Shown one piece after another: positions 14,327 to 55,087 of a DNA stretch of 64,000 nt. The DNA lies in the NCBI GenBank assembly GCA_029560465.1, contig JAKQKX010000062.1, forward strand, positions 3,836-67,835. The letters are read 5' to 3'. Made by a program: the position numbers and the translations under genes. The stretch comes from Candidatus Omnitrophota bacterium (GTDB lineage Bacteria > Omnitrophota > Gorgyraeia > Zapsychrales > JANLHA01). The first letter of the stretch is position 1. Every line of letters starts with the position of its first letter. The notes beneath the pieces are model-generated. The model ran no database searches and was not told the DNA's origin. It was given only the letters and a program-made list of their open reading frames with translations.

Positions 14327-15670
14327 ATGTCTTTTGGGCTTCTAGGGGTGGTGTTTTCGTTTATTTTTTTTGATGCCGTTTTTATTAAGAAACAGGACCC
14401 GGTGCTTTATCAAAAATGTGTCCGGTCAGGTTTTTGGCCGGTCGCAGCCTATGGTGTCCTGGTGCTGATGCTTTTTGTGTTATCCAAGCGATGGGAGGAC
14501 CTCCCGGTTTACGGGTTTCTTTTTGTCCTTCCGGTTTACTTGTTCAAGCGTTACGGGTTTCTTAGGAGATTAAACCCGGCCCGCAGGGACCCGCAGGTCT
14601 TGGGCCTCGGGCTTTCCCTCACCCTGGATGCGTTCAACATGGCGCTGATTTGGGCTGCGGTCATGTCTCTTTTGACCATGGGATTAGAGTTTTTTTCGAG
14701 CCTTTACCCTCAAATGCAATCTGATCTCGGGGAGGTTGTATTCATTTCTGGGCTGTCGCCACTTTTTCTTTTATGGTTTATTAACAAAAGCATCCGGAAG
14801 TACCGGGATATTTCTTTTAGAGAAATCCTTGGCCTGCAGCGCCAGGGCCTTCCCTTGTGGAGGCTGATCGGCGTCCCGTTCCTGGCCGGCATCGGAATGG
14901 CGGCGGTTTCCAGTATGATGATCCATTCCCGGGAGGCTCAGCCGGCGACTCCGTTGACCCGGATGGTGGAATCGACGACATCACCGTGGATATTTTTGTC
15001 ATTACTTGTGGTTGCGGTGTTTATGGCGCCTTTTTTGGAGGAAATTATTTTCCGTGGATACCTTTATTATCTTGTCGAGAAGATAAAAGGGAAAAAAACG
15101 GCGGTCATCCTTATCGCGTTCCTTTTTGGCCTCCTGCATGTCGAACAGTACTGGGGCGATTGGACCGCGATCACGATGGTGGCTATCCTGGGCGTTTTGC
15201 TGACCTTACAACGGATGTGGACGCGTTCCTCTATCCCTGGGGTTATTACGCATTACGTTTATAATGGGGCCATGACGGTCTTGTCCGTCCTGGTTTTTAT
15301 GACCAGTTATCCGAGTTATTATGAATTCCAGACAAAGTTTCCCGAGTTGACTTTTCAGGAGAAAGAAACGCTGCTTAAAAAGAGCATGGAGCAGTCCCCG
15401 GGATTAGCCGGTCCTTATAACGATTTGGCCTGGATTTACGCCGAGCAAAATATACATCTGTCCCGGGCCTTGGAGTTGGCGGACCGGGCTTTGGCCCTGG
15501 ATCCGGATAATTACGCGTTTTTGGACACGAAAGCGGAGGTCCTGTATAGATTAGGACGGGTTGATGAAGCTGTGGCTATTGCCGAGACGCTGGTACGGGA
15601 ATATTCTGCCAATGCGTATTCTCAGCAGCAATTGGATAAATTTAAGTCGGGGTTGAAAGAAGAGGAATAA
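14327..15670 (+). CDS. CPBP-family (CAAX/Abi) intramembrane metalloprotease fused to C-terminal TPR domain
   Basis: Motif 1 EEIIFRG, motif 2 FGLLH, motif 3 HYVYNG within TM region; C-terminal TPR-like repeats (DLAWIYAEQN..., AFLDTKAEVLYRLGRVDEA). Confidence 0.7.
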   Translation: MSFGLLGVVFSFIFFDAVFIKKQDPVLYQKCVRSGFWPVAAYGVLVLMLFVLSKRWEDLPVYGFLFVLPVYLFKRYGFLRRLNPARRDPQVLGLGLSLTLDAFNMALIWAAVMSLLTMGLEFFSSLYPQMQSDLGEVVFISGLSPLFLLWFINKSIRKYRDISFREILGLQRQGLPLWRLIGVPFLAGIGMAAVSSMMIHSREAQPATPLTRMVESTTSPWIFLSLLVVAVFMAPFLEEIIFRGYLYYLVEKIKGKKTAVILIAFLFGLLHVEQYWGDWTAITMVAILGVLLTLQRMWTRSSIPGVITHYVYNGAMTVLSVLVFMTSYPSYYEFQTKFPELTFQEKETLLKKSMEQSPGLAGPYNDLAWIYAEQNIHLSRALELADRALALDPDNYAFLDTKAEVLYRLGRVDEAVAIAETLVREYSANAYSQQQLDKFKSGLKEEE

Positions 15671-15671
15671 C

Positions 15672-17246
15672 ATGCTGAAAATTTTTTTAAGGACGGGACT
15701 TATGGTATGCATTTTTGTAACGGGAGTCTGGGCGGAAGAACCTGGTGGCCCTATTGCCGGGCCTCCTTCGGAGGGGACGGCGGCCGCGGCGCTGGACGCG
15801 CGCCCGGCAGAACCCGCCGGAGAAAGAGAGCCGGGATTATCCTTAGAGTCCACGCGGGAATCCTTTGTGATTGAAATCCGAATCCCAGAAAGCCCTCTGG
15901 ACCCCGATGCTGTCCCGGTCGTTCCGAGGGTAGCCTCCCCGACCCAGAAGATCCTTCCGGAAGTGGATTTTCATCAGAGCCCTTTTCCAGACGCTTTGCG
16001 GGTTATCTCTGAAGGAAGTGGGGTGCCGATTGAGGGCGCGGACGCTTTATCGGGAACGGTCACCCTGTGTTTGCGGGAGATATCTTTTGAGCAGCTGTTA
16101 TTTTTACTTATGAAAATGAGTAAGGGGGCTTTTGTGTTTGAAGGCCAGAATGTCCGTGTTATGACTTCCGACGCGTATGAAATTAAGTACGGGCAGCCTT
16201 TTGCGCCGGAAATAGATGTTGCTGTCATGCCCTTGCGTCACCGGACGGTTAAAGACATAAAAGAGAATTTGGAGCAGTTGGAAAGCCTGAAAGGCCATTT
16301 GTTCATGGACGAGAAGAATCAACAGTTGATCGTTTTGGACCGGCAGGACCCTATGGAACAGATGATGGCGCTGCTGAGGTCTTGGGATATGCCTCCTTTG
16401 ACGACGAAAACGTTTCCTTTGCAGAACCTTAAACCGGAGACTGCGGCGGAAAGGCTGTCGGTTGTGTTAACGGAAAATGTCGGGACGGTGACTGTGAATT
16501 CGGAAACCCGGCAAGTGACCGTGAGGGATGCGACGGCGAATTTTCAGAAGATTGAGACATTCCTTCAAGCGCTGTCCCAAGCTCCCGAAATCGTGTGGCG
16601 GCTTCAGATGTCGAGGATTCAACTGAACGAAGAGCATCAAGACGGGATTGATTGGGAGGCGATTGTCTCAGAATACCAGAAGGCTGGCATTTTGGGGTAC
16701 AAAGTGGGCCTGCCTCCTGAACAGAACCATTTGAGCGTCGGGACGATCACCCAAGAAGATCTGCCGGTGCTCAAAGACGCTTTGGACGCGGCGGGACAAC
16801 TGATCGATCTTTACGACATGACAGAAGGGGCTGATTTTAACAATGAGATAACTTTTGTTTTGGATACGATGCAGAACCCGAAAAAATTCCGGGACCCTGA
16901 GGGGCTCGCCTTGACGCTCAAGGTGCGTTTGAAAAAGGCCGACAGGGAAAAGTATGTGGTCCAGGTGAACCCGGATTTGACCTGGTTAGCCGACAATGCG
17001 CCGGCAGTCCAGCCGTCCTCGGTGGAGACTTTTACCCCTCAGGATTCGATAGCGGTCCTGTTAAGAAAACATGACGTTATCGTCCTGGGTGGGCTATTGA
17101 GGGAAAAAGAATTGGAACGGACATCTAAAATTCCGTTGCTCGGGGATTTGCCTTTCCTGGGTTTCATTTTCCGTTCCGAGAACCGGCTGATTTTACGTAC
17201 GGAATACATTATTTTCTTGATCCCTGATTTTCCGGAATTGCCTTGA
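15672..17246 (+). CDS. Secretin-family outer-membrane channel protein, short paralog (GspD/PilQ-like)
   Basis: C-terminal secretin signature IPLLGDLPFLGFIFRSENRLILRTEYIIFLIP; paralogous to 28304-30079 (QMSRIQLNEEHQDGIDWEAIV vs IEAKILQVVLSDQHKFGVDWEAVV). Confidence 0.65.
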   Translation: MLKIFLRTGLMVCIFVTGVWAEEPGGPIAGPPSEGTAAAALDARPAEPAGEREPGLSLESTRESFVIEIRIPESPLDPDAVPVVPRVASPTQKILPEVDFHQSPFPDALRVISEGSGVPIEGADALSGTVTLCLREISFEQLLFLLMKMSKGAFVFEGQNVRVMTSDAYEIKYGQPFAPEIDVAVMPLRHRTVKDIKENLEQLESLKGHLFMDEKNQQLIVLDRQDPMEQMMALLRSWDMPPLTTKTFPLQNLKPETAAERLSVVLTENVGTVTVNSETRQVTVRDATANFQKIETFLQALSQAPEIVWRLQMSRIQLNEEHQDGIDWEAIVSEYQKAGILGYKVGLPPEQNHLSVGTITQEDLPVLKDALDAAGQLIDLYDMTEGADFNNEITFVLDTMQNPKKFRDPEGLALTLKVRLKKADREKYVVQVNPDLTWLADNAPAVQPSSVETFTPQDSIAVLLRKHDVIVLGGLLREKELERTSKIPLLGDLPFLGFIFRSENRLILRTEYIIFLIPDFPELP

Positions 17247-17305
17247 AGGGGCGTTACCGGCCGTATGCTTTTTCCCTGGACCTGATCCTGTCAACACGGA
17301 TAGCT

Positions 17306-19255
17306 ATGAGAAACGTTTTAGAAATTATAATACGCGTTTCCTCTCAACGGCAGGGATTCGTTCTCCTTGTCCTGGCCTTCGCGTTCACGGCGGTTATTTA
17401 CAGGCCGGTGATGCCGGGCGAGTTCGTGTGGGATGACCAGGGGCATTTTGAGTCCAATCCGTTGATCCGCCGGTTGACGGTCTCCCGGGTGGGGGAGATC
17501 CTTTCATCAACAGTTTATGATATATACATTCCGTTGACCATGCTTTCGTTCGCGCTGGAGTATCCTTTCTCTCGCGGGTCTCCGGCGGTTTCCCGCATTA
17601 ATAATTTATTCCTTCATGGGGGTGTCCTTGTCCTGGTTTATTGTTTGGCCCTTCAGGCTGGTGTTACGGAACGGGCCGCGGGCATGGCGGCGTTTATTTT
17701 TGGGATCCATCCGATGCATGTCGAAGCGGTGGCCTGGATCAGCGCCCGGAAAGATGTTTTGAGCACGTTTTTTTATTTCTGGGCGCTTCTTCAATACATG
17801 AGGTATCTCCGGACCCGTGAACGGGGCCGGTACCTTTTGACGTTGTTTTTCGGGCTGTTAAGCATGCTGGCAAAACCGATGGCGGCTAGCCTGCCGGTCG
17901 CCTTGTTCGTCTGTGACAGCTTCACTGGCCGGCGGCTGACCCGGCTGTCTGTCCTGGAGAAGCTCCCTTTGGCCTTGATGCTGTTCCCCCTGGCGTGGTT
18001 CACCCTTTCCCGAAACTTAGGGCAGGGCACGGCTCCTTTGCCGGTTTCGATTTTGACCTGGTTTTGGACGTTCATGTTTTATCTGCGGAAATTTTTTATC
18101 CCTTTTAACCTGTGCCCGCTTTATGATTGGCCGGGGCCCGTTTCTTGGCCGCAGGAGGCATACAGGAACGCCCTGTTGGCCGGCATGGCGTTAGGGGGGA
18201 GTGGGTATCTTTTAAGAAAAAGAAAGTGGTTTTATTTTCCCGTGATGTTTTACGTGGCGACGATCTTTCTCGTCCTGAGGACCAGCCCTCATGGCGTGGG
18301 GCTGACCCCTGTCGCCGACCGGTATATGTATTTACCCAGCTTGGGATTCTGTTTGGCTCTGGGCGCGGCATATGACCGCCTGTCGCGCGCCGTTGAGAAT
18401 AAAGGGCGTGGATATTTTTTGGGAACGCAGGCTGTCGTCGGCGCAATTGCGGGCCTCCTGGTGTTCTCGGCTTTTCACCAGGCCTTGATCTGGAAGGACG
18501 GCTATTCCTTGTGGGGGTATGTGCTGAGACGCGACCCAGGGAATCCCGTCGCCCATGGCAATCTGGGCTTGGCGTTTCTTCGCGATGGGGACAAAGAATC
18601 GGCCCGAAAGCATTTTTTGTCTGCCGTCCGGCTTCATTCCATGGACGCCCAGAATTATAATAATCTCGGGAACCTGTTTTATGAAGAAGGCCGGCGGCAG
18701 GAAGCCAAGCAGTGTTTTGAGATGGCGTTGCGCCTGAATCCGGCTCACGCGCAGGCACACAGTAATTACGGGGTCGTGCTCATGGAGGGAGGGGACTATG
18801 CCCGCGCGCAAAGATTTTTGGCGCGCGCTGCGGCCCTGTCCCCCGGGCAGCCGGATATATTTAAAAATTTGGGGAATGTTTATCTGCTTCAAAATAAAGA
18901 TGTTTTGGCGGAACACGCGTATTTGCAGGCGCTCGCTTTAAACCCGTCTCTTTTGTATGTGCACAGTGTTTTGGCGGACATGTACCTAAAGAAAGGGGAT
19001 TTGGATAAAGCCGCCGTTCATTTTTCTGAAATTCTGATCTATGAGCCGGACAATGCCCGCGTGCATAATAGCCTCGGCGCTATTTATATAAAGAAATTTG
19101 ATCCCCGGCGAGCGGTGTACCATTTCCGTGAGGCTTTGCGGATCGACCCGCATTACGGGAACGCCCGGAACAATTTGAATATCCTCCTCGCGCAGACCGC
19201 CCTTCCCCCAGAAGAGGGGAACGCGGGCTGGACGATGGGGAAGCCCTGGGAATAA
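17306..19255 (+). CDS. GT-C fold membrane glycosyltransferase-like protein (TMTC/PMT-like) with C-terminal TPR repeats
   Basis: >10 TM helices; acidic DD motif in first loop (FVWDDQGHF); 7+ TPR units at C-terminus (NLGLAFLRDGD, NLGNLFYEEGR, NYGVVLMEGGD, NLGNVYLLQNK...); alternative TTG start at 17243 overlaps secretin stop. Confidence 0.55.
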   Translation: MRNVLEIIIRVSSQRQGFVLLVLAFAFTAVIYRPVMPGEFVWDDQGHFESNPLIRRLTVSRVGEILSSTVYDIYIPLTMLSFALEYPFSRGSPAVSRINNLFLHGGVLVLVYCLALQAGVTERAAGMAAFIFGIHPMHVEAVAWISARKDVLSTFFYFWALLQYMRYLRTRERGRYLLTLFFGLLSMLAKPMAASLPVALFVCDSFTGRRLTRLSVLEKLPLALMLFPLAWFTLSRNLGQGTAPLPVSILTWFWTFMFYLRKFFIPFNLCPLYDWPGPVSWPQEAYRNALLAGMALGGSGYLLRKRKWFYFPVMFYVATIFLVLRTSPHGVGLTPVADRYMYLPSLGFCLALGAAYDRLSRAVENKGRGYFLGTQAVVGAIAGLLVFSAFHQALIWKDGYSLWGYVLRRDPGNPVAHGNLGLAFLRDGDKESARKHFLSAVRLHSMDAQNYNNLGNLFYEEGRRQEAKQCFEMALRLNPAHAQAHSNYGVVLMEGGDYARAQRFLARAAALSPGQPDIFKNLGNVYLLQNKDVLAEHAYLQALALNPSLLYVHSVLADMYLKKGDLDKAAVHFSEILIYEPDNARVHNSLGAIYIKKFDPRRAVYHFREALRIDPHYGNARNNLNILLAQTALPPEEGNAGWTMGKPWE

Positions 19256-19287
19256 CGCCGGGGTTGTTTATAAGGACAGGAACGCAC

Positions 19288-20997
19288 ATGAATGGGAGTT
19301 ATCGGAAATCATTTGGCCAGCTGTTAGTCGAGAAGGGCGTGATCAGCCAGGCCCAGTTACAGGAAGCCCTGGACAAGCAGATCCCACGGGAAGAATTGTT
19401 CCTCGGGACGTTGTTGCGCCTTGGGTTTATCTCCGATGAAAGGAGGGTTTATCCTCTTTTGGCGGACCATCTGAAGGTGGAATACCTGGACTTGAAATCC
19501 TCGCCGATTGACCGGGACGTCCTTCCTCGGGTTCCGGTCATGATGGCCACCCATTATAAGGTGTTCCCGGTCCGTTACGACGCGGGGGCGGGCGTGTTAA
19601 CGGTCGCGACGGCTTATCCGCAAAATATTTTTATCCTGGACGGGCTGCAGATGGCCCATCCGGGGAGGATCAAGGCGGTCCTTTCCCGGGAGGCGGATAT
19701 CCTGGAGGCGATACGGGAATACTACGGAGTCGGGGCTGAGACGATCGCCCAGATGAAGGGCGTGTTGCCCGGCGAAGGGACTCCGGAGGGGAACGTTGAA
19801 GACATCGAGCAGATCGATTCCGATGCTTCGATCGGGAAGTTTATCAATCAGATCCTTTTGGAAGCGTATCGGACCCGGGCCACGGATATTCATATTGAGC
19901 CGTATGAGCGGGATTTAAAAATCCGTTGCCGTATCGATGGCGTCCTTTATGATACCAAAGTCCCGATGAATATTTGGAATTTTAAGGAAGCGATTAATTC
20001 CCGGATTAAGATCATGTCCAACCTCAATATCGCGGAAAAACGTCTTCCTCAGGACGGGCGATTCAAGGTGAAAGTGGGGGGCGTGAGCCTGGATTTGAGG
20101 GTGTCTTTCCTGCCGACGCAGTATGGCGAAAGCGTGGTCATCCGGATTTTGAGCTCCAACCGGCTATATAATATGGATGAACTCGGGCTGAACGCCCGGG
20201 AACAGGAACTCCTGGAGCGGCTTATCCGCAAACCCCACGGCATCGTATTTGTGACCGGCCCGACGGGCAGCGGGAAGACGACGACGCTGTATTCTTGCCT
20301 GGCCCATGTCAACACGGCGGACAAGAAAATCATCACCATCGAAGACCCAGTGGAGTACCAGCTCAACGGCATCACTCAAATTCAAATTAACCCGGCGATC
20401 CACTTGACGTTCAGCCAGGGGTTAAGGTCGATGCTGCGCCATGATCCTGACATCATGATGGTGGGAGAAGTCCGCGACCGGGAGACCGCGGAGATCGCGA
20501 TTCAAATCGCCTTAACCGGGCATTTGGTTTTTTCAACCCTGCACACCAATGACGCCGCCAGCGGCATCACCCGGCTTGTTGATATGGGCGTGGAGCCGTA
20601 TTTGATTTGCAGTTCGGTGGAATGCTTTATCGCGCAAAGGCTGGTGCGGCTTTTGTGCCCTTTGTGTAAAAAGGCTATCCCGGTCACGGAAGATATCCTT
20701 CGGGTTTTGAGGGAGGATGTTCCGGAGGCGCGGCCGCAGACGTTGTTCGAAGCCCAAGGCTGCGAGGCCTGTCATGGGACCGGGTACCACGGCCGGGAAG
20801 GGATTTACGAATTTTTGTCACTCAACGACGCAATCCGGGAGATGGTCCTGGCCCGGGCGACGTCCGCTCAAATAACCAGAAAGGCCGTTGAGCAGGGGAT
20901 GAAGACGCTCCTCAAACACGGATGGGAAAAGGTTTTAGCCGGGAAAACCACTCCAAGCGAGATTATGCGGGTCACGAAGGATGATATGAACTCCTGA
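19288..20997 (+). CDS. gspE: Type II secretion/type IV pilus assembly ATPase GspE/PilB family
   Basis: N-terminal GSPII_E N domain, Walker A GPTGSGKTTTLY, Asp box, His box, tetracysteine motif CPLC...CEAC. Confidence 0.9.
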   Translation: MNGSYRKSFGQLLVEKGVISQAQLQEALDKQIPREELFLGTLLRLGFISDERRVYPLLADHLKVEYLDLKSSPIDRDVLPRVPVMMATHYKVFPVRYDAGAGVLTVATAYPQNIFILDGLQMAHPGRIKAVLSREADILEAIREYYGVGAETIAQMKGVLPGEGTPEGNVEDIEQIDSDASIGKFINQILLEAYRTRATDIHIEPYERDLKIRCRIDGVLYDTKVPMNIWNFKEAINSRIKIMSNLNIAEKRLPQDGRFKVKVGGVSLDLRVSFLPTQYGESVVIRILSSNRLYNMDELGLNAREQELLERLIRKPHGIVFVTGPTGSGKTTTLYSCLAHVNTADKKIITIEDPVEYQLNGITQIQINPAIHLTFSQGLRSMLRHDPDIMMVGEVRDRETAEIAIQIALTGHLVFSTLHTNDAASGITRLVDMGVEPYLICSSVECFIAQRLVRLLCPLCKKAIPVTEDILRVLREDVPEARPQTLFEAQGCEACHGTGYHGREGIYEFLSLNDAIREMVLARATSAQITRKAVEQGMKTLLKHGWEKVLAGKTTPSEIMRVTKDDMNS

Positions 20998-21022
20998 CGG
21001 CCAGGCCGGCTTGAGATACGGT

Positions 21023-22246
21023 ATGGGACAATTTTTTTATAAAGCCAAGCAGGGCCCTTCCAAAATCATTGAAGGGGTCATTGAAGCGGATCATGAAGCG
21101 ATGGCGGTCAGCCGCATCCTTCGGATGGGGTACACGCCTTTGAATGTGCGGGCGGCGCCAGCGGCGGGCAAGAAAATCAAGGGCGCTGGCCTGCCGATGT
21201 CGGCGGGCATCAGGGGTCGGCCCCAGGATGTCATGATCTTCACCCGGCAGATGAGCGACCTTGTGAGCGCCGGGGTGCCGGTTTTAAGGGCGTTATCTCT
21301 TGTGGATAAGCAGCTTAAGAACAAAAGGCTCAAAGATGCCGTCGGGCAAATGATCGCCGTGGTTGAAGACGGGGGCCCGTTATCCTCGGCCTTGGCCAAG
21401 TTCCCGGGGATTTTTTCCCCGTTATATATCAATATCGTCCGTTCGGGCGAAGTCGGCGGCAACCTGGAGGTTGTCCTGGCCAGGTTATCGGATTTTATAG
21501 AAAAGGATTATGATATCCAGGCGCAGGTCAAGACCAGTTTGATGTATCCGGGGCTGATCCTTTTTGTCGGAGGGGCCACAATATTTGTCATTTTGACGTG
21601 GGTCATCCCGAAGATCTCAACGATCTTCATTGACATGAACGAATCCCTGCCTCTGGTCACAACGGCGCTTTTGGCGGTCAGCCGTTTCCTGGCCCGGTTC
21701 TGGTGGGCGCTGGGGGCTGTCTTCCTTCTGGCCGTGGTTCAGTTGAGGAGGGCCTACGCGACCCCTGAAGGGAAACTGTGGCTCGACAGCTTGAAGCTGA
21801 AGATCCCGGTCGTCGGGCCGTTTATCCAGGACGTGGAAGTCGGACGCTTCGCCCGGACGCTTGGCACGTTGCTCGCCAACGGTGTCACGGTTGTCACGGC
21901 TATTGACACGGTTTGCCAGGCCGTTGATAATGAAATTTTTAAACAGGACGTCCTTCGGATGAATCGTCTGCTGACCGGGGGGGGGAGTTTAACGCAGGTG
22001 ATGCAGTCTTGCGCGTTCTTCCCGGAAACGGCTGTGAATATGGTCGCCATCGGGGAAGAAACCGGTCAGCTGCATCAGGGGTTGCTGAAACTGGCGGCTT
22101 ATTATGAACACCAGTCAGAGCGGACCATGAAACGGGTGACCAGCCTTATAGAGCCCGTGCTGATTCTGGTGATGGGGGTTTTTATCGGGTTTATAGTCTT
22201 GGGGATGCTGATGCCGATTTTTAGAATGAATCTTATAATCCGATAA
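21023..22246 (+). CDS. gspF: Type II secretion system inner-membrane platform protein GspF/PilC
   Basis: Two GspF repeats, N-terminal FFYKAKQG..IEGVIEA signature, three TM segments. Confidence 0.85.
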   Translation: MGQFFYKAKQGPSKIIEGVIEADHEAMAVSRILRMGYTPLNVRAAPAAGKKIKGAGLPMSAGIRGRPQDVMIFTRQMSDLVSAGVPVLRALSLVDKQLKNKRLKDAVGQMIAVVEDGGPLSSALAKFPGIFSPLYINIVRSGEVGGNLEVVLARLSDFIEKDYDIQAQVKTSLMYPGLILFVGGATIFVILTWVIPKISTIFIDMNESLPLVTTALLAVSRFLARFWWALGAVFLLAVVQLRRAYATPEGKLWLDSLKLKIPVVGPFIQDVEVGRFARTLGTLLANGVTVVTAIDTVCQAVDNEIFKQDVLRMNRLLTGGGSLTQVMQSCAFFPETAVNMVAIGEETGQLHQGLLKLAAYYEHQSERTMKRVTSLIEPVLILVMGVFIGFIVLGMLMPIFRMNLIIR

Positions 22247-22282
22247 GACACACGGGATTGCCCAGAAGAGGGGGATGGAGTC

Positions 22283-22723
22283 ATGACGCAGAAAAGATGT
22301 GGCGGGGCCAGGGGGTTTACCCTTGTGGAGATTCTCCTGGTGGTTGTTATCATCGGGGTTTTGGCGGCCATGGTGGTGCCGAATTTTTCCGGGAAAAAAT
22401 CAAAGGCCCAGCAGGCCGCGGCGGTGGCGGACATCGAGGCCAATCTGGCCGTCGCGCTGGACATGTATGAGCTGGATGTCGGGCGGTTCCCCACCACGGA
22501 ACAGGGCCTGAAAGCTTTAATTGAAACCCCGTCTACGCCTCCGGTCCCGGAGACCTGGGGCGGCCCGTATCTTAAGAAGAAAACGATTCCGCTCGACCCT
22601 TGGGGGCAGGAATATAATTACAGGTCCCCGGGGACGCAGAATCAGGAAAGTTATGACCTCTTTTCTTACGGCGCCGACGGTGTGGAAAGCAATGATGATA
22701 TTGCCAATTGGCAAAAGGAATAG
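22283..22723 (+). CDS. gspG: Type II secretion major pseudopilin GspG
   Basis: Prepilin leader + GFTLVEILLVVVIIGVLAAMVVPNF; C-terminal DPWGQEYNYRSPG...YDLFSYGADG...ANW is diagnostic of GspG. Confidence 0.9.
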   Translation: MTQKRCGGARGFTLVEILLVVVIIGVLAAMVVPNFSGKKSKAQQAAAVADIEANLAVALDMYELDVGRFPTTEQGLKALIETPSTPPVPETWGGPYLKKKTIPLDPWGQEYNYRSPGTQNQESYDLFSYGADGVESNDDIANWQKE

Positions 22724-23243
22724 GGGCGGGCCTTGTCTGGGGCATGGGAATGGCCGTGCTTTCACGCTGATCGAGATGGTGTTGGCCGTTTCCATTATTG
22801 CGGTTCTGGCCGGCGTGGCGCTTCCTCATTTCGGCCGGTCTTGGTCGCGGATTAAACTTCGGAATGCCGCTGATGAGTTATCGTATATGATGCGTTTCGC
22901 TCAGAGCCAGGCCATCCGTAAGGGGGCGCATGTCAGGTTGACGTTTGCGCGGGACGCGCATACCTATTATTTGCAACAGGGGGCCCTGGAGACCGGAGAA
23001 ATCGTGTCCTACGAGTCTTTGTCGGGGCGGTGGGGCCGGAATGTTCCCGTTCCACAGGATATCGAGGTGGCGGTGAGCGCCGATGGAGTGGTTTTCGCGC
23101 CGGATGGCCGTATTGCCCCTTTCCAATGCCAGTTTTGCCGGCGGGTGGATTGTTATCTTGTGTCAACGGCGGGCTCCCGGGGGATGGTTGATGTCTGGTT
23201 TTTTCAGCGGTCCCTTGGCCCAGCGGGGCAGGAGTATCGATGA
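22692..23243 (+). CDS. gspH: Minor pseudopilin GspH-like
   Basis: AFTLIEMVLAVSIIAVLAGVALP prepilin-type N-terminus; start overlaps gspG by ~32 nt; leader unusually long (~22 aa). Confidence 0.55.
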   Translation: MMILPIGKRNRGGPCLGHGNGRAFTLIEMVLAVSIIAVLAGVALPHFGRSWSRIKLRNAADELSYMMRFAQSQAIRKGAHVRLTFARDAHTYYLQQGALETGEIVSYESLSGRWGRNVPVPQDIEVAVSADGVVFAPDGRIAPFQCQFCRRVDCYLVSTAGSRGMVDVWFFQRSLGPAGQEYR

Positions 23244-23665
23244 AGGACAAAAGAGTTATGACGCGCGCTTCTGGTCGCCGAGGAGTGTTGTCTCCATCGG
23301 GGGTCGTCCTCCTGGAGGTGCTGTTGGCCATGGCGGTCTTTTCCATAAGCATTGTGTTCCTGATCAATTCCCTGGCACAGAGTTTCCGGGCCACGGTCTA
23401 CAGCCGGGATTACACAGAGGCCCTTTTTGAGGCGGATAACCTTATGGCCCATATCTGGGCCAGGGGCATGATGGAGCGACAGAATCAGGAAGAAGGTGCG
23501 CTCCCGGCGAGGCCGGGGGACTTTAAGTACCGGATTCGGGCGTCCCAGAGCGCGGATAAGAATGTGGGTGAATGGTTGAATGAATTTTTTGTGGAAGTGT
23601 CGTGGATATTGGGAGGCAAGAAACGTGCGTTTTCTTGGCGCGGCTTTATTTTTGACGCGTCATAA
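23240..23665 (+). CDS. gspI: Minor pseudopilin GspI-like
   Basis: GVVLLEVLLAMAVFSISIVFL prepilin-like N-terminal helix; ATGA overlap with upstream stop. Confidence 0.5.
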   Translation: MKDKRVMTRASGRRGVLSPSGVVLLEVLLAMAVFSISIVFLINSLAQSFRATVYSRDYTEALFEADNLMAHIWARGMMERQNQEEGALPARPGDFKYRIRASQSADKNVGEWLNEFFVEVSWILGGKKRAFSWRGFIFDAS

Positions 23666-23678
23666 AGACGTTTTTATT

Positions 23679-24431
23679 ATGGTAGCGGGTTCCGCGCTCC
23701 CGGCCCGGGAGGGCCGGTTCCCGCGGGCGCGAGGCTTTACGTTCATTGAAATACTCTTGGCTTTAATGCTGGTGTCTGTTTTAGCCGGGAGCCTGTATGC
23801 CACATACGCCGCGGGGATACAGATTCATAAACGCGCTCAGAAACTAGAACAGTGGTCCCGTTCGGCGTCCTGGTCTTTTGACGCGATGGCCTTAGATTTG
23901 GAAAATATGTTGCCGTATCACACTCCGGAGGGATCGGCCGCGGCCCCTGATGATTTTTTTGAAGGGACGTCAACCGGGTTGAAACTGCTGTGTGCCGGGG
24001 AAGGGGGGTTAAAAGAGGTCAGGTATTTTCTGAAAGACGCCGATTACGGGACCGTGCACACCGTGATCGTGGGGGCCCGGTCCCGCGCGGTTAATGGGCC
24101 TGTCACGGTCGAGACGAGCGAACAGGGCCGGGTACAATTTCTTGTCCGGGAAGAAAGGGTGTTTCCGTCCGTGGAAGGGGCGGCCGAAATGCCTCCGGGG
24201 GGGGAAGCGGAAATCCTTAACCGCTATGTTTTGAAAGACAGCCTGAAATTTTTCTTCGCGGGAACCTCCCGGGCCGCGGCCCGGGAGGATATCCCGTGGG
24301 AAACAACGTGGAAAAAGCCGGCTTTCCCGTCTTTGGTGCGCGTTGAGATGACGCTGGTCAACCCCCAAGAGCCGGAAGAAACGGTTCGCCTGCAAAAGGA
24401 TGTTTTTGTCCCTTCCGGCGCGTGGAAATAA
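23679..24431 (+). CDS. gspJ: Minor pseudopilin GspJ-like
   Basis: GFTFIEILLALMLVSVLAGSLY prepilin-like N-terminus, ~250 aa. Confidence 0.5.
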   Translation: MVAGSALPAREGRFPRARGFTFIEILLALMLVSVLAGSLYATYAAGIQIHKRAQKLEQWSRSASWSFDAMALDLENMLPYHTPEGSAAAPDDFFEGTSTGLKLLCAGEGGLKEVRYFLKDADYGTVHTVIVGARSRAVNGPVTVETSEQGRVQFLVREERVFPSVEGAAEMPPGGEAEILNRYVLKDSLKFFFAGTSRAAAREDIPWETTWKKPAFPSLVRVEMTLVNPQEPEETVRLQKDVFVPSGAWK

Positions 24432-24477
24432 TCCGGCGTGGCCGGGGGTGTTTTTGGGAAGGGCAAGGGGGATTGTT

Positions 24478-25647
24478 ATGAAAGAAAAAGGCGTCCGCCC
24501 GCATATTAAGGAATGGGAGAAGGGGCGCCCCTGGAAAAATCTGCAGGGGCCGGGGGCGGGATTTTTGAAGGATCAGTCCGGCGTTATATTGATTGTCGTC
24601 CTTTGGATCGTCGCGATCCTTTCTGTTTTTATCCTGGGATTGGGCCGCCGGGCCAGTGTTGACCTGGCGCTGACCCAATATCAGAGGGAAAAGTTTAAAG
24701 CCGGGCACACGGCCATCGCCGGGATTGTTTATGCCATGGCGTGTATCCGGAAAGACAGCCTTGCCCCGGAAACCCGCATCTTTGATACGCTTTATCAGCG
24801 GGGCGTGAAATTGGATGAAAATCAGGCCGTGGAAGACCTTTTCAGCCAGGTCTCTTCCGGCGACGGATATTTTGAAATCCGGCATTGGGAAGGGGGCGAG
24901 GACGGGGCCGCAGAGAGGGTGTTCGGGTTTGAAGACGAAGAGAGCAAAATTAACGTGAACTTGCTTTCTCCTCAGAATTATAAAGTGCTCAGCGCGTTGA
25001 TCACTTATTTCGGTTTTGAGGAGGATGCCGCCGACGTCATCGCGTCCGCGGTTATAGACTGGAAAGACAGTGACGACAACACCTTTAACGCGCCATACGG
25101 GGCGGAGAGGGATTTTTACCAGCATCTGGGGCCTCCCAGGGACTGCAAGAATTATCCTTTTGAAAGCGTCGAGGAAATGCGTTTGGTGCGGGGGATGACG
25201 GACGAGATTTTTAAGAAGATCAAGCCTTATATCACGGTTTATCCGTCATCCGGCCGTTTCCAGGTGAACCTGGAGACAGCGCCCCGTCCGGTCCTGACCG
25301 CTTTGGCCCGGGCCGTGGCCGGCAACCAGACCAACACGGAAAAGGAGGATGCCGACGGGGTGGTGGAGAAGATCCTGCAAAACCGGCTGGGAGAGGACGG
25401 GCGCGCTGCGACGGCGGATGACAGGATTTTTGATATCAATCAGCTTTCCCTTAACACCGAAGAACGGATTGTCGCTTTGATGATGTATCAGAACATGGCC
25501 AGGACCTCTGATTATTTTCGTGTTTCGGTGAACGGGTTCTCCGGCCCTGGCGGGGCGCTGTCCAAGATTGAAGCGGTGGTTTCCAGGTCCAACCTGTCGA
25601 TCCTGTACTGGAAAAGGCACGAACCTTTTGCACGAGCGGAAGAATGA
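24478..25647 (+). CDS. gspK: Minor pseudopilin GspK-like
   Basis: SGVILIVVLWIVAILSVFILG N-terminal helix, ~390 aa with HhH-like central region, position after GspJ. Confidence 0.6.
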   Translation: MKEKGVRPHIKEWEKGRPWKNLQGPGAGFLKDQSGVILIVVLWIVAILSVFILGLGRRASVDLALTQYQREKFKAGHTAIAGIVYAMACIRKDSLAPETRIFDTLYQRGVKLDENQAVEDLFSQVSSGDGYFEIRHWEGGEDGAAERVFGFEDEESKINVNLLSPQNYKVLSALITYFGFEEDAADVIASAVIDWKDSDDNTFNAPYGAERDFYQHLGPPRDCKNYPFESVEEMRLVRGMTDEIFKKIKPYITVYPSSGRFQVNLETAPRPVLTALARAVAGNQTNTEKEDADGVVEKILQNRLGEDGRAATADDRIFDINQLSLNTEERIVALMMYQNMARTSDYFRVSVNGFSGPGGALSKIEAVVSRSNLSILYWKRHEPFARAEE

Positions 25648-27095
25648 GTAATAAATATAAGACTGTTTTATTGATAACGGATACAGACATAAAAATTCTG
25701 CAGGCCAAAGCGCAGCGGGGGGGCGCGGAGCCTTTTTATTCTTTTGTTAAAGCGCGGGCGCACCCGTCGCCCGAGTTTTTACAATCAGCCCTTCGTGAAG
25801 GGCTCCCCGCTTCTTTAAAGCGGATAGGGCAGGTTGTGTTGCTTATTTCCCGGCGGCAGGTTTTGATGTTGCCGGCACGCTTCCCTTCCCATTCCGGGGC
25901 GGAAATCCAGCGCATGGTCGATTTGCAGGTCAGCCATCTGACTCCCTTTGCCCGGGAGGAGATCGTAATCTGTCACTCGGTGGTTGACCGGGAACCCGAT
26001 GGATATGCGCGGGTGCTGATCCAGGCGGCCCCTCAAGATCTTGTTTTGAGCTATCTTCGCCTCCTTGCCGGCAGGAACGTGCCGTGTCATCAAGTGATCC
26101 TGAGCTCGGTCGGGGTTGGGGCATGGTACAGGAAAAATGTGTTGGCCCCGGGAGAGGACGCCGGCCGGGTCGTGGCGATCTTGGATGTGGACCGCCGGGG
26201 ATCAGAGCTTTGTTTCCTGCGGGACGACACGCTTTTGTTTTCCAGGTATTTGCCGTTCGGGCATGAGGAAGAAAGCCCGGAGGCGATGTCCTCCTTGGCG
26301 GAGCAGGTCCTTTTAACAGTCGAAGCCTATCGTCGCGAATGTATGGGCGGCCCGATATCCCGCTGCATTATCATGTCAGATGCGGATTTGAGCCGGGTGA
26401 AAGATCTTATCAACGGCCTTGATATCGCGCCGGCGGTAGACCTTGTGTCTGTGCGCCAGCGGACTTTGGGCAAGATGCGGAAGCCCCCGGCCGGCCTTCT
26501 TGCTGAGCCCGTGTCCTGGACCGCCCTCCTGGGAGCGCTTTCCGACGGGCTACCTAAAGAGGCGAACCTGCTCCCGGGGGAGATCATCCGGATTAAGTCG
26601 TCGACGCTTAAACGCCGGGCAAGGATCCGCTTTGTTGCCGTTCTGCTGGGCACGTTGGGGGTGCTGTGGGGAGCCCTCAATCTGGATAATTTCCAGAAAG
26701 AGCGGAAGCTGGCCCATCTGAAAGATGCCCTTCAGGCGCAACAGGTGAGCGTCAGGAAAGCGCAGGAGAATATCGAGGCGATCGAAGCGTTACAGGTTAA
26801 GTTGCGCAGCCGGGTTGTTTTGGTAGACATCCTCCGGGGGCTTTACGAAAAAGTGCCGGAACCTATTTCTTTGCGTTCGTTGCAGCTTGACCATAAAGGG
26901 ACGGTCATCCTGCAGGGGTTTGGGGAATCACGAAGCGCGGTGAACCAATTTCACAATAATTTGGTCAGCTCCGCGATGTTTCAGAATGTCGCTTTGGAAT
27001 ATGCCACGGAACGGAAACAATATAAAGAAGAATATGTCGAATTCAAGATTTTATGCCAGTTATCCCGGGACGAGAAGAAGAGGGCCGAGCCATGA
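25644..27095 (+). CDS. gspL: GspL-like (PilM-like cytoplasmic domain + TM + PilN-like periplasmic coiled coil)
   Basis: N-terminal actin-like/PilM-like region, single TM RIRFVAVLLGTLGVLWGALNL, coiled-coil C-terminus; gene order. Confidence 0.5.
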   Translation: MSNKYKTVLLITDTDIKILQAKAQRGGAEPFYSFVKARAHPSPEFLQSALREGLPASLKRIGQVVLLISRRQVLMLPARFPSHSGAEIQRMVDLQVSHLTPFAREEIVICHSVVDREPDGYARVLIQAAPQDLVLSYLRLLAGRNVPCHQVILSSVGVGAWYRKNVLAPGEDAGRVVAILDVDRRGSELCFLRDDTLLFSRYLPFGHEEESPEAMSSLAEQVLLTVEAYRRECMGGPISRCIIMSDADLSRVKDLINGLDIAPAVDLVSVRQRTLGKMRKPPAGLLAEPVSWTALLGALSDGLPKEANLLPGEIIRIKSSTLKRRARIRFVAVLLGTLGVLWGALNLDNFQKERKLAHLKDALQAQQVSVRKAQENIEAIEALQVKLRSRVVLVDILRGLYEKVPEPISLRSLQLDHKGTVILQGFGESRSAVNQFHNNLVSSAMFQNVALEYATERKQYKEEYVEFKILCQLSRDEKKRAEP

Positions 27096-27625
27096 TGCAT
27101 TTTCAGTTTAGCGCGAGGGAAAAGAAAGTCCTTATCGTTTCTCTGGCGTTGCTCTCAGTCTATTTGGTTAAAACATGGGTTGTGGAGCCCGTTCAAACCC
27201 GGGCTGAGTGGCTTGACCGGCAAATCCGGAATACGGAACAGAAACTGTTAACCGCGTCCCGCACGATCCGCAAGAGCCAGGTTGTCCAGCGCCGGTATAA
27301 GGTCTTGCTGGACAATTACCGGCAGAATCGGTCCAACGAAGAGGTGATGTCTGGAATTTTGACTGAAATTGAAGCCATCGCCGCGGGTAACAGTTTAAGC
27401 ATTTCTGATCTTAAGCCGAATAAACCCAAAATAATTAATTATTATAAAGAGTTTTCTGTGAGCCTGGTTCTGGAGGGGGACTTCACCCAGGTGATGGAAT
27501 TTATTTTTAAATTGCAAAAAGAGCCCTATGATTATTTTGTGGATGAAGCCGAAATCAGTAAACATTCTCCGCGGACCAGCGGGCTGCGGTGCCGTTTTGT
27601 CTTAAGCAAAGTCTTAATTCCTTGA
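27092..27625 (+). CDS. gspM: GspM/PilO-like bitopic protein
   Basis: Short cytoplasmic N-terminus, TM VLIVSLALLSVYLV, coiled coil then ferredoxin-like region; ATGATG overlap with gspL stop. Confidence 0.45.
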   Translation: MMHFQFSAREKKVLIVSLALLSVYLVKTWVVEPVQTRAEWLDRQIRNTEQKLLTASRTIRKSQVVQRRYKVLLDNYRQNRSNEEVMSGILTEIEAIAAGNSLSISDLKPNKPKIINYYKEFSVSLVLEGDFTQVMEFIFKLQKEPYDYFVDEAEISKHSPRTSGLRCRFVLSKVLIP

Positions 27626-27769
27626 CATAATTTCATATATGCTTGACACCTTGTGACACTTATGACAGAGTACTCATAGAATTGGCCGGAGGAGCAAAAA
27701 AGATAAAAATGGCTGAAATTGTTAATTCCGGGTGCGACGCTGGCGGCGCAGGGGAAGTGCAGGGGCGGG

Positions 27770-28255
27770 ATGCTTAAGAAGATAACACAGGTTCTGCAGG
27801 TTGTGGCTATCATGGTGCTCGCGTACTGTGCCGCGCGCTGGTATGCGTTTACAGAACCGGAGCCCCTTCCGGTTTTGGACGGCGGTCGTTTTGAGCAGAA
27901 AACAGGTGTCCGGGACGACGTTGCCCTGAACTCCCGGGCGTCCTTCGCAGAGTACCGCCAGGTTTTTTCTCAAAGAGAGATTTTTGTGATGCCTTACGCG
28001 AAAGAGGCTCCGGCCCCGAAGGCCCAAGCCGTTGAATCCCCGGTCGCGCAAAAAGCCCATTTGGTCGATTTCCGGCTGCGGGGGGTTGTGCTGGATCAGC
28101 AGCCGCAGGCTATTGTAGAAGACTTGAGCAACAAACAGACATTGTTCCTGTCCCCGGGAGATTTGCTCGGGCAGGGCACTTTAAAGGAAGTCCGGGAAGA
28201 CCGTATTATTGTGGTGGTTCATGATGCGTCGTTGGAACTGCTTATGGAAGATTGA
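27770..28255 (+). CDS. GspC/PilP-like periplasmic T2SS component (putative)
   Basis: N-terminal TM VVAIMVLAYCAARWY, C-terminal beta-rich region; located immediately upstream of the secretin. Confidence 0.4.
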   Translation: MLKKITQVLQVVAIMVLAYCAARWYAFTEPEPLPVLDGGRFEQKTGVRDDVALNSRASFAEYRQVFSQREIFVMPYAKEAPAPKAQAVESPVAQKAHLVDFRLRGVVLDQQPQAIVEDLSNKQTLFLSPGDLLGQGTLKEVREDRIIVVVHDASLELLMED

Positions 28256-28303: not shown

Positions 28304-30079
28304 ATGATAAATCTTGATGGATATAAGCATATCGCGTTGATGGGCGGGGTTTTTTTCTGCTTGCTCATTCCCGCCGGGATAGCGGCCGAACGCCAGGACA
28401 TTGTTCATCAAGCGTTGAATGATTATGAATCTCTCCCTGTTGCCCCCGGACCTGTGACGGCGGGCTTAAATTCGGGTCCCCATGCCTCGGGGCAACCGGA
28501 CCGTTCTGGGCCCATGAAGAACGACGTGCTCCGCCGGCAGCTGGTCAAGATAGTCCATGGCCTGAACCCCCAGGATTTTTCAGAAGACGAAACGTACGCC
28601 GAGGTGATCGAAATCCGGCGTCCTGGGAACGAGGCCGTCCCGGAGCCTCCGGAGGAGGATGTTCCGGACGGGGGCAGGATTGATGTCCTCCAGATGAAAA
28701 ATGTCGACATTATGGATATTTTGAAGCTGATCTCCCAGAAGAGCGGGGTGAACATCATCACCGGCAAGGGCGTCAGCGGGAATGTTTCGATTTATCTGAA
28801 AGATGTGCGCTGGAAGGATGCCTTGCGGATTATCCTCGATTCGAACGGGCTTGCCTATAAAGACGAGGCAGGGATTTTGCATGTGATGCCGGCCGCTGAA
28901 TTCGAAAAACGTTACGGATACCGCTTCGGCGGGGATTTGAAAACCAGAATTATTCATCTGGATTATGCGGATGTCCAGGATATGGTGACGTTGTTAACGC
29001 AGATGAAGAGTTATCTGGGCAAGATCATCGCTGACGCGAAGTCTAATACCCTTGTTTTGACGGACTCGGGGGATGTTATTGCCGAGATGGAGCGGTTGAT
29101 TAAGCAGATTGATGTGCCGGTTATGACAAAAGTCTATGAGCTGAATTATGCCCAGGCGGAGGACCTGTCTCAGAAAGTCGCGGAGGTCTTGACGAAGAAT
29201 GTCGGCCGCGTGAAGCACGACGTGCGGTCCAACAAACTTATTGTCCGGGACACCCCCGTGTCTTTGGCGGAGATAGACAAACTTGTCCATTCATTTGACG
29301 TGCGGGAACAGCAGGTCCTGATAGAAGCCAAAATTTTGCAGGTCGTTTTGAGCGACCAGCATAAATTCGGGGTGGACTGGGAAGCGGTGGTCACGAAATA
29401 TCACAATCTTAATTTTAAGAATGATTTCAGTATTTTAAGCAGCAATGAAAAAAGCGGCACGGTGACGATTGGGACGCTGGCGAGCGATGATTACACGGCG
29501 CTGTTGGAGGCGCTGAAAACTGCCGGGGAGACTAATATCCTTTCTTCGCCCCGGATCACGGCCTTGAACAAGCAGGAGGCCAGGATTTTGGTTGGCTCCC
29601 AGGAACCTTACGTGACAACGACAACAACGACCCCGGCCAGCGGGCCGACGACAACGGCGGAAAGCATCAGTTTTATTGACGTGGGGATTAAGCTGTATGT
29701 GACCCCAACGATCCACCGGGATGATTTTATCACGATGAAGATCCGGCCGGAAGTCAGTTCCGTGACCCGGACGCTTACGACCAGTAATAATAACACCATT
29801 CCGGTCGTTGAAACTTCGGAAGCGGAAACCACGGTGATGATTAAAGATGGGGTGACGGTCATTATCGGGGGGCTTATCAAAGAGGAGACCATCAATTCCG
29901 AGAATAAAGTTCCGCTTCTGGGAGACATCCCCTTCCTGGGGCTTGCTTTTCGCAACGAAGACCATTTGACTCGAAAAACAGAAATCGTAATTTTCTTGAC
30001 CCCCCGGATTATGAGTGGGGATGTGTCCACGGCTCTGTCCCCGGAAGATTTTTCTTCCAGAGCGCCGGCGTCTTTTTAA
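28304..30079 (+). CDS. gspD: Type II secretion secretin GspD-like
   Basis: Secretin N domains + secretin domain with VPLLGDIPFLGLAFRNEDHLTRKTEIVIFLTPRI; contains poly-Thr tract VTTTTTTPASGPTTTAES. Confidence 0.85.
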   Translation: MINLDGYKHIALMGGVFFCLLIPAGIAAERQDIVHQALNDYESLPVAPGPVTAGLNSGPHASGQPDRSGPMKNDVLRRQLVKIVHGLNPQDFSEDETYAEVIEIRRPGNEAVPEPPEEDVPDGGRIDVLQMKNVDIMDILKLISQKSGVNIITGKGVSGNVSIYLKDVRWKDALRIILDSNGLAYKDEAGILHVMPAAEFEKRYGYRFGGDLKTRIIHLDYADVQDMVTLLTQMKSYLGKIIADAKSNTLVLTDSGDVIAEMERLIKQIDVPVMTKVYELNYAQAEDLSQKVAEVLTKNVGRVKHDVRSNKLIVRDTPVSLAEIDKLVHSFDVREQQVLIEAKILQVVLSDQHKFGVDWEAVVTKYHNLNFKNDFSILSSNEKSGTVTIGTLASDDYTALLEALKTAGETNILSSPRITALNKQEARILVGSQEPYVTTTTTTPASGPTTTAESISFIDVGIKLYVTPTIHRDDFITMKIRPEVSSVTRTLTTSNNNTIPVVETSEAETTVMIKDGVTVIIGGLIKEETINSENKVPLLGDIPFLGLAFRNEDHLTRKTEIVIFLTPRIMSGDVSTALSPEDFSSRAPASF

Positions 30080-47024: not shown

Positions 47025-47097
47025 CGGTTTAAAAAGAATTGAGGGAGATGCCCGATGGCTTTCGCCGGGGACTTCAATTCGGGTGAAAAACTGATTG

Positions 47098-49041: not shown

Positions 49042-49147
49042 TCATTCCGGCTGGCCGGCAAAAACGGGATAGGAATGCCAGGCATCCCTGTCCCGTATGG
49101 CTGGGCGCGCGATGTTGGTCTGGGTACGGCGTTGGAAGGACACGGTC

Positions 49148-51852: not shown

Positions 51853-51881
51853 TTGACAAAACCCCTTATTTTATTGAATAT
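51853..51881 (+). promoter_or_regulatory. Candidate sigma70 promoter (TTGACA - 17 nt - GAATAT) in AT-rich region
   Basis: Consensus -35 TTGACA 51853-51858; plausible -10 17 nt downstream; ~40 nt upstream of coiled-coil gene start with SD gaggag. Confidence 0.35.
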
Positions 51882-51918
51882 TAGTATTATATTTAATAAT
51901 TTAATTGAGGAGAAATAC

Positions 51919-55082: not shown

Positions 55083-55087
55083 GCCCC

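Follow-up and report, generated by a model that had tools for sequence, protein, structure and literature searches.

A gene in a type II secretion system (T2SS) operon of a Candidatus Omnitrophota bacterium encodes a protein that is a genuine bacterial homologue of the TMTC O-mannosyltransferases, beyond mere architectural likeness. The gene lies in the 64,000 nucleotides (nt) of DNA analyzed here, called the window below (contig JAKQKX010000062.1, positions 3,836 to 67,835), where a mechanically called open reading frame (ORF) at 17243..19255 (+) encodes 670 amino acids (aa). Residue numbers throughout refer to this 670-aa ORF, which begins at TTG 17243. The ORF is found between a secretin-like gene (15672-17246) and gspE (19264-20997), and couples a membrane domain of the GT-C glycosyltransferase type to a C-terminal domain of tetratricopeptide repeats (TPRs). 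The kinship with the TMTCs follows from a fold search, a BLASTP comparison with TMTC1 and an hhalign comparison with TMTC3. We read the protein as an inner-membrane enzyme of the TMTC type whose acceptor is a periplasm-exposed component of the T2SS or its cargo, and we consider the chances of this reading to be about even.

Against Pfam and NCBIfam, the full protein matched TPR families alone (in Pfam at residues ~437-655), and the N-terminal 411 residues by themselves matched only PMT_2 in Pfam, with an E-value of 0.9. A profile built from the membrane-domain alignment gave nothing meaningful among PDB sequences, including no sequence-level similarity to STT3, PglB or AglB. The full-length AlphaFold2 (AF2) model, with a predicted local distance difference test score (pLDDT) of 88.5 and a predicted template modelling score (pTM) of 0.84, returned TPR proteins alone in Foldseek. 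When the membrane domain was modelled on its own (pLDDT 83.9), all eight PDB matches at E <=1e-3 were GT-C enzymes, i.e., yeast and human STT3, PglB and Pmt4. The query TM-scores of the matches at this threshold were 0.47-0.58, and STT3, PglB and AglB scored best (0.5-0.58). Weaker matches were to AglB, ArnT, ALG3, Emb, Pmt1/2 and DPY19, and no solved TMTC structure was among the PDB matches obtained. The fold, together with the acidic motif in the first periplasmic loop (EL1), thus supports membership in the GT-C glycosyltransferase superfamily, with homology pointing to the corresponding activity. The possibility that the membrane domain might group with families other than glycosyltransferases was not borne out, as every significant Foldseek match was a GT-C enzyme.

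For comparison, we used the membrane-domain sequences of human TMTC1 and TMTC3 as published in the supplements to Eisenhaber et al. (2021; PMC7801869). BLASTP aligned the whole of the window domain with residues 1-456 of TMTC1 (421 columns, 27% identity, E-value 7e-13), and hhalign aligned the family profile with TMTC3 at a probability of 99.3% and an E-value of 7.5e-21. In the BLASTP alignment, GEFVWDD of the window protein pairs with GEFVHDD of TMTC1, YIPLT with YRPLC, HPMHVEAVAWISARKDVL with HPIHTEAVAGIVGRADVL, MLAKPMA with MLVKETG, LCPLYDW with LCYDW, and VADRYMYLPSLGFC with VAERVLYMPSMGYC. Compared with the TMTC motifs M1-M5 and M7, D64 and D65 correspond to M1, Y95, P97 and L98 to part of M2 (YxPL), and H156, P157, E161, W165, R169, K170 and D171 to the M3 region. 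Additionally, K211 corresponds to the Lys of M4, and D359, R360, M362, Y363, L364 and P365 to M7, (D/E)RxxY, while the His-Lys of M2 is not conserved in the window family. The Arg of M7 contacts the donor phosphate in solved GT-C enzymes, and an Arg before transmembrane (TM) helix 10 is common to STT3, PglB and AglB (PMC7801869). By this alignment, the Arg of DRYMYLP (R360) corresponds to the Arg that binds the phosphate in GT-C enzymes.

These positions are also invariant or nearly so in our alignment of 40 homologues. In the motif FVWDDQGHF, with W63-D64-D65 at its center, D64 is invariant and D65 at least 90% conserved. H156, P157, E161, W165, R169 and K170 are invariant, as are M362, Y363, L364 and P365, and conservation is at least 90% at D359 and R360. 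Taken by loop, the conserved residues are D64/D65, Y95-x-P-L, H156-P-x-H-x-E, R169-x-D171, K211 and D359-R360-x-x-Y363. From the AF2 helices and the positive-inside rule, we count 11 TM helices and a hydrophobic juxtamembrane helix at residues 266-285. The K/R-rich loops RTRERGR, GRRLTR, LRKRK and ENKGRG alternate as an 11-TM topology predicts, and in this model the TPR domain and the conserved loops, the DD loop included, are all predicted to face the periplasm. This agrees with the topology of 11 TM helices derived for the TMTCs (PMC7801869).

DUF1736 (PF08409), the domain of the TM7-TM8 loop in the TMTCs, was not matched by the window protein, by the 18 members of alignment A2 or by 10 distant members, at E-value cut-offs from 1 to 10. 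PMT_2 (PF13231) scored 10.1 bits in the window protein, below its cut-off of 26.1 bits, and the Pfam scan gave no consistent match among the 18 family members. Two of the 10 distant members matched PMT_2 in the same region, one above this cut-off (L079, 28.6 bits) and one just below it (L017, 25.5 bits), so the link of the family to PMT_2 and the PMT-ArnT clan would be transitive. Some JGI records name homologues 'protein O-mannosyl-transferase'.

The C-terminal domain forms six helix pairs at residues 435-634 and a capping helix in the AF2 model, while Pfam TPR_2 marks five stretches. In the Foldseek search with the full-length model, this domain matched consensus TPR proteins, the TPR domain of OGT, and PilF. 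These results bear on most of what an earlier note on this DNA had claimed from the sequence, namely a TMTC/PMT-like GT-C enzyme with more than 10 TM helices, an acidic DD loop motif (FVWDDQGHF) and seven or more TPRs, wedged between a secretin and gspE. The placement, the helix number and the DD motif all held, and the assignment as a TMTC-like GT-C enzyme with TPRs was strengthened by the fold and sequence comparisons. The repeat number was an overcount, and of the remote-homology searches that the note had proposed, the one against TMTC was positive, while DUF1736 gave no match and PMT_2 stayed below threshold for the window protein.

The coordinates of the gene, its motifs and the neighboring features are collected in the table.

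Features of the window discussed in the text, with the evidence for each.
Feature	Position (nt)	Strand	Evidence
GT-C/TPR gene, likely product 649 aa	17306..19255	+	Homologue N-termini at M22; AF2 model
Membrane GT-C domain, residues 22-432	17306..18538	+	Foldseek; BLASTP vs TMTC1; hhalign vs TMTC3
D64-D65 of WDD motif, first periplasmic loop (EL1), putative catalytic acid/base	17432..17437	+	TMTC motif M1; aligns with GEFVHDD of TMTC1
HPMHVEAVAWISARKD, TM3-TM4 loop containing RxD	17708..17755	+	Aligns with HPIHTEAVAGIVGRAD of TMTC1 and TMTC3
DRYMYLP, loop before TM10	18317..18337	+	Aligns with VAERVLYMPS of TMTC1; motif M7
Predicted periplasmic TPR domain, residues 435-653, six repeats and capping helix	18545..19201	+	Pfam TPR_2 E 2e-35; AF2 helix pairs
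GDSL-type lipase/acylhydrolase fused to TPRs	10191-11789	+	Syntenic in L001 and L002
CPBP/Rce1-like intramembrane protease with TPRs (CPBP-TPR)	14327..15670	+	Pfam Rce1-like E 1.8e-18; syntenic in L001, L002 and L006
Divergent secretin paralogue 'sec1'	15672..17246	+	Pfam Secretin (profile positions 70-165 only) and Secretin_N
gspE, gspF, gspG	19264..22723	+	T2SSE E 1e-134; T2SSF E 2e-63; T2SSG E 9e-33
Minor pseudopilins (H, I, J, K), PilM-PilN-type GspL, PilO/GspM-like, GspC-like (mechanical ORF starts)	22521..28255	+	Pfam GspH, N_methyl, T2SSK_1st, PilM_2 and PilN, PilO, T2SSC
Canonical secretin (GspD/PilQ type)	28304..30079	+	Pfam Secretin E 1e-50; NCBIfam PilQ 292 bits, GspD 281 bits
Central gate of the canonical secretin, G431 to G461	29594..29686	+	Aligns between the pivot glycines in V. 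cholerae GspD and in P. aeruginosa XcpD

The start of the gene is likely ATG 17306 rather than TTG 17243. The TTG physically overlaps the TGA stop (17244-17246) of the upstream secretin-like gene, and this overlap had been taken to imply co-translation. However, the TTG is merely the first in-frame start after a stop, while the position of M22 (ATG 17306) is the N-terminus in nearly all sequences of the 40-homologue alignment. Residues 1-21 are not conserved and have a pLDDT of 42-51 in the AF2 model, and in two orthologous loci ~50-85 nt separate the called genes for the upstream secretin and the GT-C protein. Because of these homologue starts, unconserved residues and intergenic gaps, the overlap stands as a physical fact and co-translation through it was rejected. 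Downstream, the GT-C stop codon is followed by a gap of 8 nt to the gspE start, and an intergenic scan found no terminator-like site; co-transcription of the GT-C gene with gspE is therefore likely.

The operon contains the core gene set of a T2SS by Pfam matches, i.e., GspD, E, F and G, minor pseudopilins including GspK, and L-, M- and C-like components. In NCBIfam, the canonical secretin scores above the PilQ cut-off of 284 bits and below the GspD cut-off of 351 bits. As the secretin thus scores slightly better as PilQ, the T2SS label rests on the GspG and GspK matches. The position of GspL is taken by a PilM-PilN fusion (PilM_2 and PilN, 25644-27095, +). The system as a whole is intermediate between T2SS and type IV pilus machinery, even though pseudopilins of the GspG and GspK types are present.

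The closest database relatives of the GT-C/TPR protein are Candidatus Omnitrophota proteins labelled only "tetratricopeptide repeat protein". The membrane-domain profile retrieved 110,783 clusters (50% identity) at E <=1e-3 and 34,330 at E <=1e-30. At least 590 reference-genome loci carry both signature peptides, and they span Omnitrophota, Bacteroidota, Chlorobiota, Deltaproteobacteria, Elusimicrobia, Nitrospinota and other groups. The window gives access to an enormous bacterial family homologous to the TMTCs, with more than 110,000 clusters, for which public records say only "TPR repeat protein". Our literature search found no paper characterizing a bacterial TMTC-like member or a T2SS-linked glycosyltransferase, and we know of no characterized member of the bacterial family. 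TMTC homologues have been noted "even among prokaryotes" (PMC7801869). Several paralogues occur per genome, as loci L003 and L006 lie on one chromosome. In L088, a distant TPR-GT-C paralogue (20353-21800, 27% identity to the window domain) was seen ~8.5 kb downstream of the secretin, beyond a DUF748 gene; given the abundance of the family in Omnitrophota, this proximity may be due to chance.

The genomic context was surveyed for the 80 best family loci in reference genomes, with flanks of up to 6 kb, and for the loci L001 and L002. The order CPBP-TPR, sec1, GT-C-TPR, gspE, gspF, gspG is kept in L001, L002 and L006 (chromosome OY759724.1), where the identity of the GT-C domain to that of the window is 66, 74 and 50%, respectively. 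Members embedded in this operon thus make up a narrow clade of orthologues in Omnitrophota (50-99% identity), seen in the window and the loci of three relatives. This conserved operon placement supports some link to the T2SS. What would be new here is a TMTC-type enzyme from bacteria with a fixed place in a T2SS operon, the evidence for the operon link being synteny.

From homology and gene order, we infer a catalytic activity, a donor, a protein acceptor and a link to the T2SS. By homology, the sugar would come from a polyprenyl-phosphate-sugar donor at the outer leaflet of the inner membrane. The enzyme would use D64 and D65 of EL1, while K211 and R360 would hold the phosphate of the polyprenyl-phosphate sugar, and the sugar would be transferred to Ser/Thr of a periplasmic protein recruited by the TPR domain. 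In one Omnitrophota lineage, a paralogue has gained a fixed place near the start of a T2SS operon. Candidate acceptors are the pseudopilins, both secretins before assembly and exported proteins, and a T2SS component or cargo is our best guess because the synteny is conserved. A T2SS-linked step of protein glycosylation is thus plausible on these grounds. As the member locked in the operon of this lineage narrows the acceptors to a few proteins, the family becomes testable, and if the T2SS link holds, a post-translational step would be added to the T2SS. To our knowledge, no such step has been described for this system.

A more elaborate version includes the two genes upstream. The CPBP-TPR protease gene ends 1 nt before sec1, and the protease and the GT-C-TPR protein may form a processing module. 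Aligned to PDB secretins, sec1 matches only in part of the N-domains and from ~residue 402 on, and no central gate could be aligned. The location of sec1 is conserved in L001, L002 and L006, and in L088, gspE is preceded by a counterpart of 30% identity. One might imagine that the GT-C enzyme, the CPBP-TPR protease and the gate-less sec1 constitute a periplasmic module that O-glycosylates pseudopilins, secretin subunits or cargo before export, which would be the first glycosylation built into a T2SS. We regard this version as speculative and doubtful. If true, the module would offer a tractable system in bacteria for studying substrate choice by TMTC enzymes through their TPRs.

The earlier note had also proposed O-glycosylation of a secretion-system component or of the cargo, and had pointed to an unusual Thr stretch in the downstream secretin as a typical acceptor. 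The stretch is present as the poly-Thr tract VTTTTTTPASGPTTT at residues 437-451 (nt 29612-29656, 2-4 nt off the 29614-29660 given before), with nine Thr in 15 residues, within the gate peptide PYVTTTTTTPASGPTTTAES. In an alignment with solved secretins, the glycine of "LVG" lies on one side of it and that of "DVG" on the other. Two pivot glycines bound the central gate of XcpD at residues 466-496 (PMC10550240), and since the tract lies between the two corresponding glycines, it is the central gate of the secretin. The stretch is the norm in Omnitrophota rather than unusual. The pattern PY[VI]T[TS]TTTT[PT]xxG[PA]xTT is kept in 118 of 119 informative Omnitrophota homologues of 52-99% identity (one further sequence was truncated and excluded), and the 20-residue segment that covers the tract takes 7th place in conservation among 571 segments of this length. 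Synonymous differences in the Thr codons between genomes point to selection on the amino acids and not on a DNA repeat. The conservation that the note had asked about is thus confirmed, and it extends to the L088 and L089 operons, which have no GT-C gene at the corresponding position. This pattern is what a structural gate hairpin of beta-branched residues would look like. As an acceptor of the GT-C enzyme, the tract receives no specific support from these comparisons, and paralogous enzymes elsewhere in the genome may also act as modifiers. Of the proposal in the note, the link to the T2SS thus gains from the placement conserved in a small clade, and the link to the Thr tract gains no specific support.

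As a separate observation, the Thr-lined gate (TTTTTTPASGPTTT) is nearly invariant across Omnitrophota secretins (window 29594-29686; L005, L086-L089), unlike the gates of proteobacterial secretins in the PDB, which are S/N/G-rich. It represents a gate chemistry specific to the phylum, and is of interest for the sealing and opening of secretin gates.

Several results weigh against a TMTC-type enzyme acting on the T2SS. Two residues modelled as metal ligands in the TMTCs are not conserved: the Glu of the M4 motif KE(T/Q) is Pro throughout the family, and the Asp of the M5 motif DW is replaced by N or L even among orthologues. No polyprenyl-phosphate-sugar synthase (GtrB/DPM1-like GT2) or flippase was found among the window ORFs scanned, a scan in which a few ORFs at ~32-40 kb were identified by synteny only. 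Among the operon proteins, no S/T runs of four or more were found besides the secretin gate. In the context survey, L006 is the only one of the 80 best loci that is placed in a T2SS gene cluster; the flanks of the other 79 contain none, and two of these, L044 among them, have only an isolated distant GspE-like ATPase. Two relatives of 40% identity, on their own contigs, also lie outside such operons, with isolated T2SSE-family ATPase genes within ~6 kb of both. In L088, whose secretin is 67% identical to that of the window, a sec1-like gene is followed directly by gspE after a gap of 57 nt, and L089 is likewise without a GT-C gene at that place. Because L088 joins the secretin paralogue directly to gspE, the GT-C gene is dispensable for this type of T2SS; it is an accessory to it and not a core part.

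We ranked four other readings, in the order of a general glycosyltransferase, a non-protein acceptor, a pilotin-like role and glycosylation of the gate. The genomic results above argue for a general periplasmic glycosyltransferase without a T2SS-specific role, i.e., a paralogue which happens to sit in the operon and whose acceptors are unrelated envelope proteins. The size of the family and its spread over Bacteroidota, Chlorobiota, Deltaproteobacteria and others, the several paralogues per genome, the 79 loci without a T2SS gene cluster nearby and the operons of L088 and L089 would all be expected of such an enzyme. However, the position between sec1 and gspE is retained while identity falls to 50% in L006, and the tight spacing without a terminator-like site also speaks against it. 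We see this reading as possible but not probable. An ArnT-like modification of a lipid or glycan (lipid A, peptidoglycan or exopolysaccharide) would account for the presence of ArnT, Emb and ALG enzymes among the fold matches, and the weak Pfam matches to PMT_2 point to the clan to which ArnT belongs. Against this, the nearest sequence relatives are the protein-modifying TMTCs, the best fold matches are the protein-modifying STT3, PglB and Pmt4, and the TPR domains of TMTC, OGT and SPY recruit protein substrates, so that a non-protein acceptor is unlikely.

The TPR domain could alternatively serve as a helper of the PilF/PilW/Tgl kind in the assembly of one of the two secretins, with the membrane domain mainly as an anchor. 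The gene directly follows a secretin gene, and PilF (2ho1) is found by Foldseek with a target TM-score of 0.78-0.81. Like these pilotins, the protein combines a predicted periplasmic domain of six TPRs with a genetic association with a secretin. Nevertheless, in NCBIfam it reaches only 102 bits for PilW (cut-off 154) and 61 bits for Tgl (cut-off 225), and the TPR similarity is generic, as consensus TPR proteins and OGT score better. Known pilotins are outer-membrane lipoproteins without an enzymatic domain, while here the TPRs follow 11 TM helices and not a lipobox. Invariant residues of catalytic type across a huge family would also be unexpected for a mere anchor, and we find this role quite improbable. 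Still slighter is the chance that the poly-Thr tract in the secretin encoded downstream serves as the O-glycosylation acceptor of the enzyme. The nine Thr within 15 residues, the shared operon and the fact that TMTCs modify Ser/Thr on beta-strands of folded domains make such an acceptor conceivable. The tract is, however, the central gate between two pivot glycines, and a fifteen-fold glycan loading would have to allow the gate to open. It is also fixed position by position, with synonymous codon changes, in 118 of 119 informative homologues, while mucin-like acceptors usually conserve composition, and it is kept in L088 and L089 without the GT-C gene at that position.

Returning to the reading as a TMTC-type enzyme with an acceptor linked to the T2SS, comparison with known systems shows both common and distinct traits. 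TMTCs are known from animals, where they O-mannosylate cadherins, and their substrate recognition is poorly understood. With TMTC1-4 (GT105), the window protein has in common 11 TM helices, a DD in the first extracytoplasmic loop, C-terminal TPRs on the predicted non-cytoplasmic side, sequence homology across the whole membrane domain and the motifs M1, M2 (YxPL), M3, the Lys of M4 and M7. It differs in being bacterial, with the active side presumably in the periplasm instead of the endoplasmic reticulum lumen, and in the M4 Glu and M5 Asp discussed above. The TM7-TM8 loop is much shorter than in the TMTCs, even though BLASTP pairs LCPLYDW with LCYDW in this region. The donor here would be a bacterial polyprenyl-phosphate sugar, and cadherins are absent. 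The enzymes PMT (GT39) and ArnT (GT83) have the GT-C-A fold, the acidic motif in EL1 and a polyprenyl-phosphate monosaccharide donor in common with this reading, and Pmt4 and ArnT were among the fold matches; the window protein has no MIR domain and is much closer to the TMTCs. STT3, PglB and AglB are the best structural matches and have the Arg before TM10, but carry a C-terminal mixed alpha/beta domain with WWDYG where the window protein has TPRs.

TfpW of Pseudomonas aeruginosa, a pilin arabinosyltransferase of the GT-C class, is encoded beside pilA, whose pilin it modifies, and so sets a precedent for placing a glycosyltransferase within a gene cluster for type IV filaments. It polymerizes D-Araf, and its C-terminal domain is not known to consist of TPRs. 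Like the window protein, TfpW is a polytopic membrane glycosyltransferase whose first loop and C-terminal domain are both periplasmic, while its gene belongs to a type IV pilus locus and the window gene to a T2SS operon. Type IV pilins are glycosylated by TfpW, which has been described as both a membrane glycosyltransferase and an oligosaccharyltransferase (bioRxiv 10.1101/2020.04.19.049825).

Some further features of the window were observed in passing. TPR fusions to envelope enzymes recur, as a lipase, a protease and a glycosyltransferase of this build are found within 10 kb. In NCBIfam, the CPBP-TPR protease matches Mrt-type CPBP families below their cut-offs, and these weak matches point to Mrt-type sorting proteases of C-terminal-anchor systems. 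A second cluster of the TPR/GT-C-like kind lies at 54153-59706 (+), where two ORFs with C-termini matching YfhO (55079-57418 and 58534-59706), separated by an unassigned ORF, come after a stand-alone TPR protein (54153-55082); YfhO proteins we take to be GT-C enzymes. At 51853-53871 (+), a 672-aa ORF without a Pfam match occupies a purine-skewed stretch of low GC content (GC skew 0.31, AT skew 0.34). Its product has a hydrophobic segment at the N-terminus and then a long, E/K/Q-rich, coiled-coil-like sequence with a repeat of ~80 residues. Lastly, two tandem paralogous B12-binding radical SAM proteins of ~650 aa each are encoded at 47095-51091 (+), with long N-termini that Pfam leaves unassigned.

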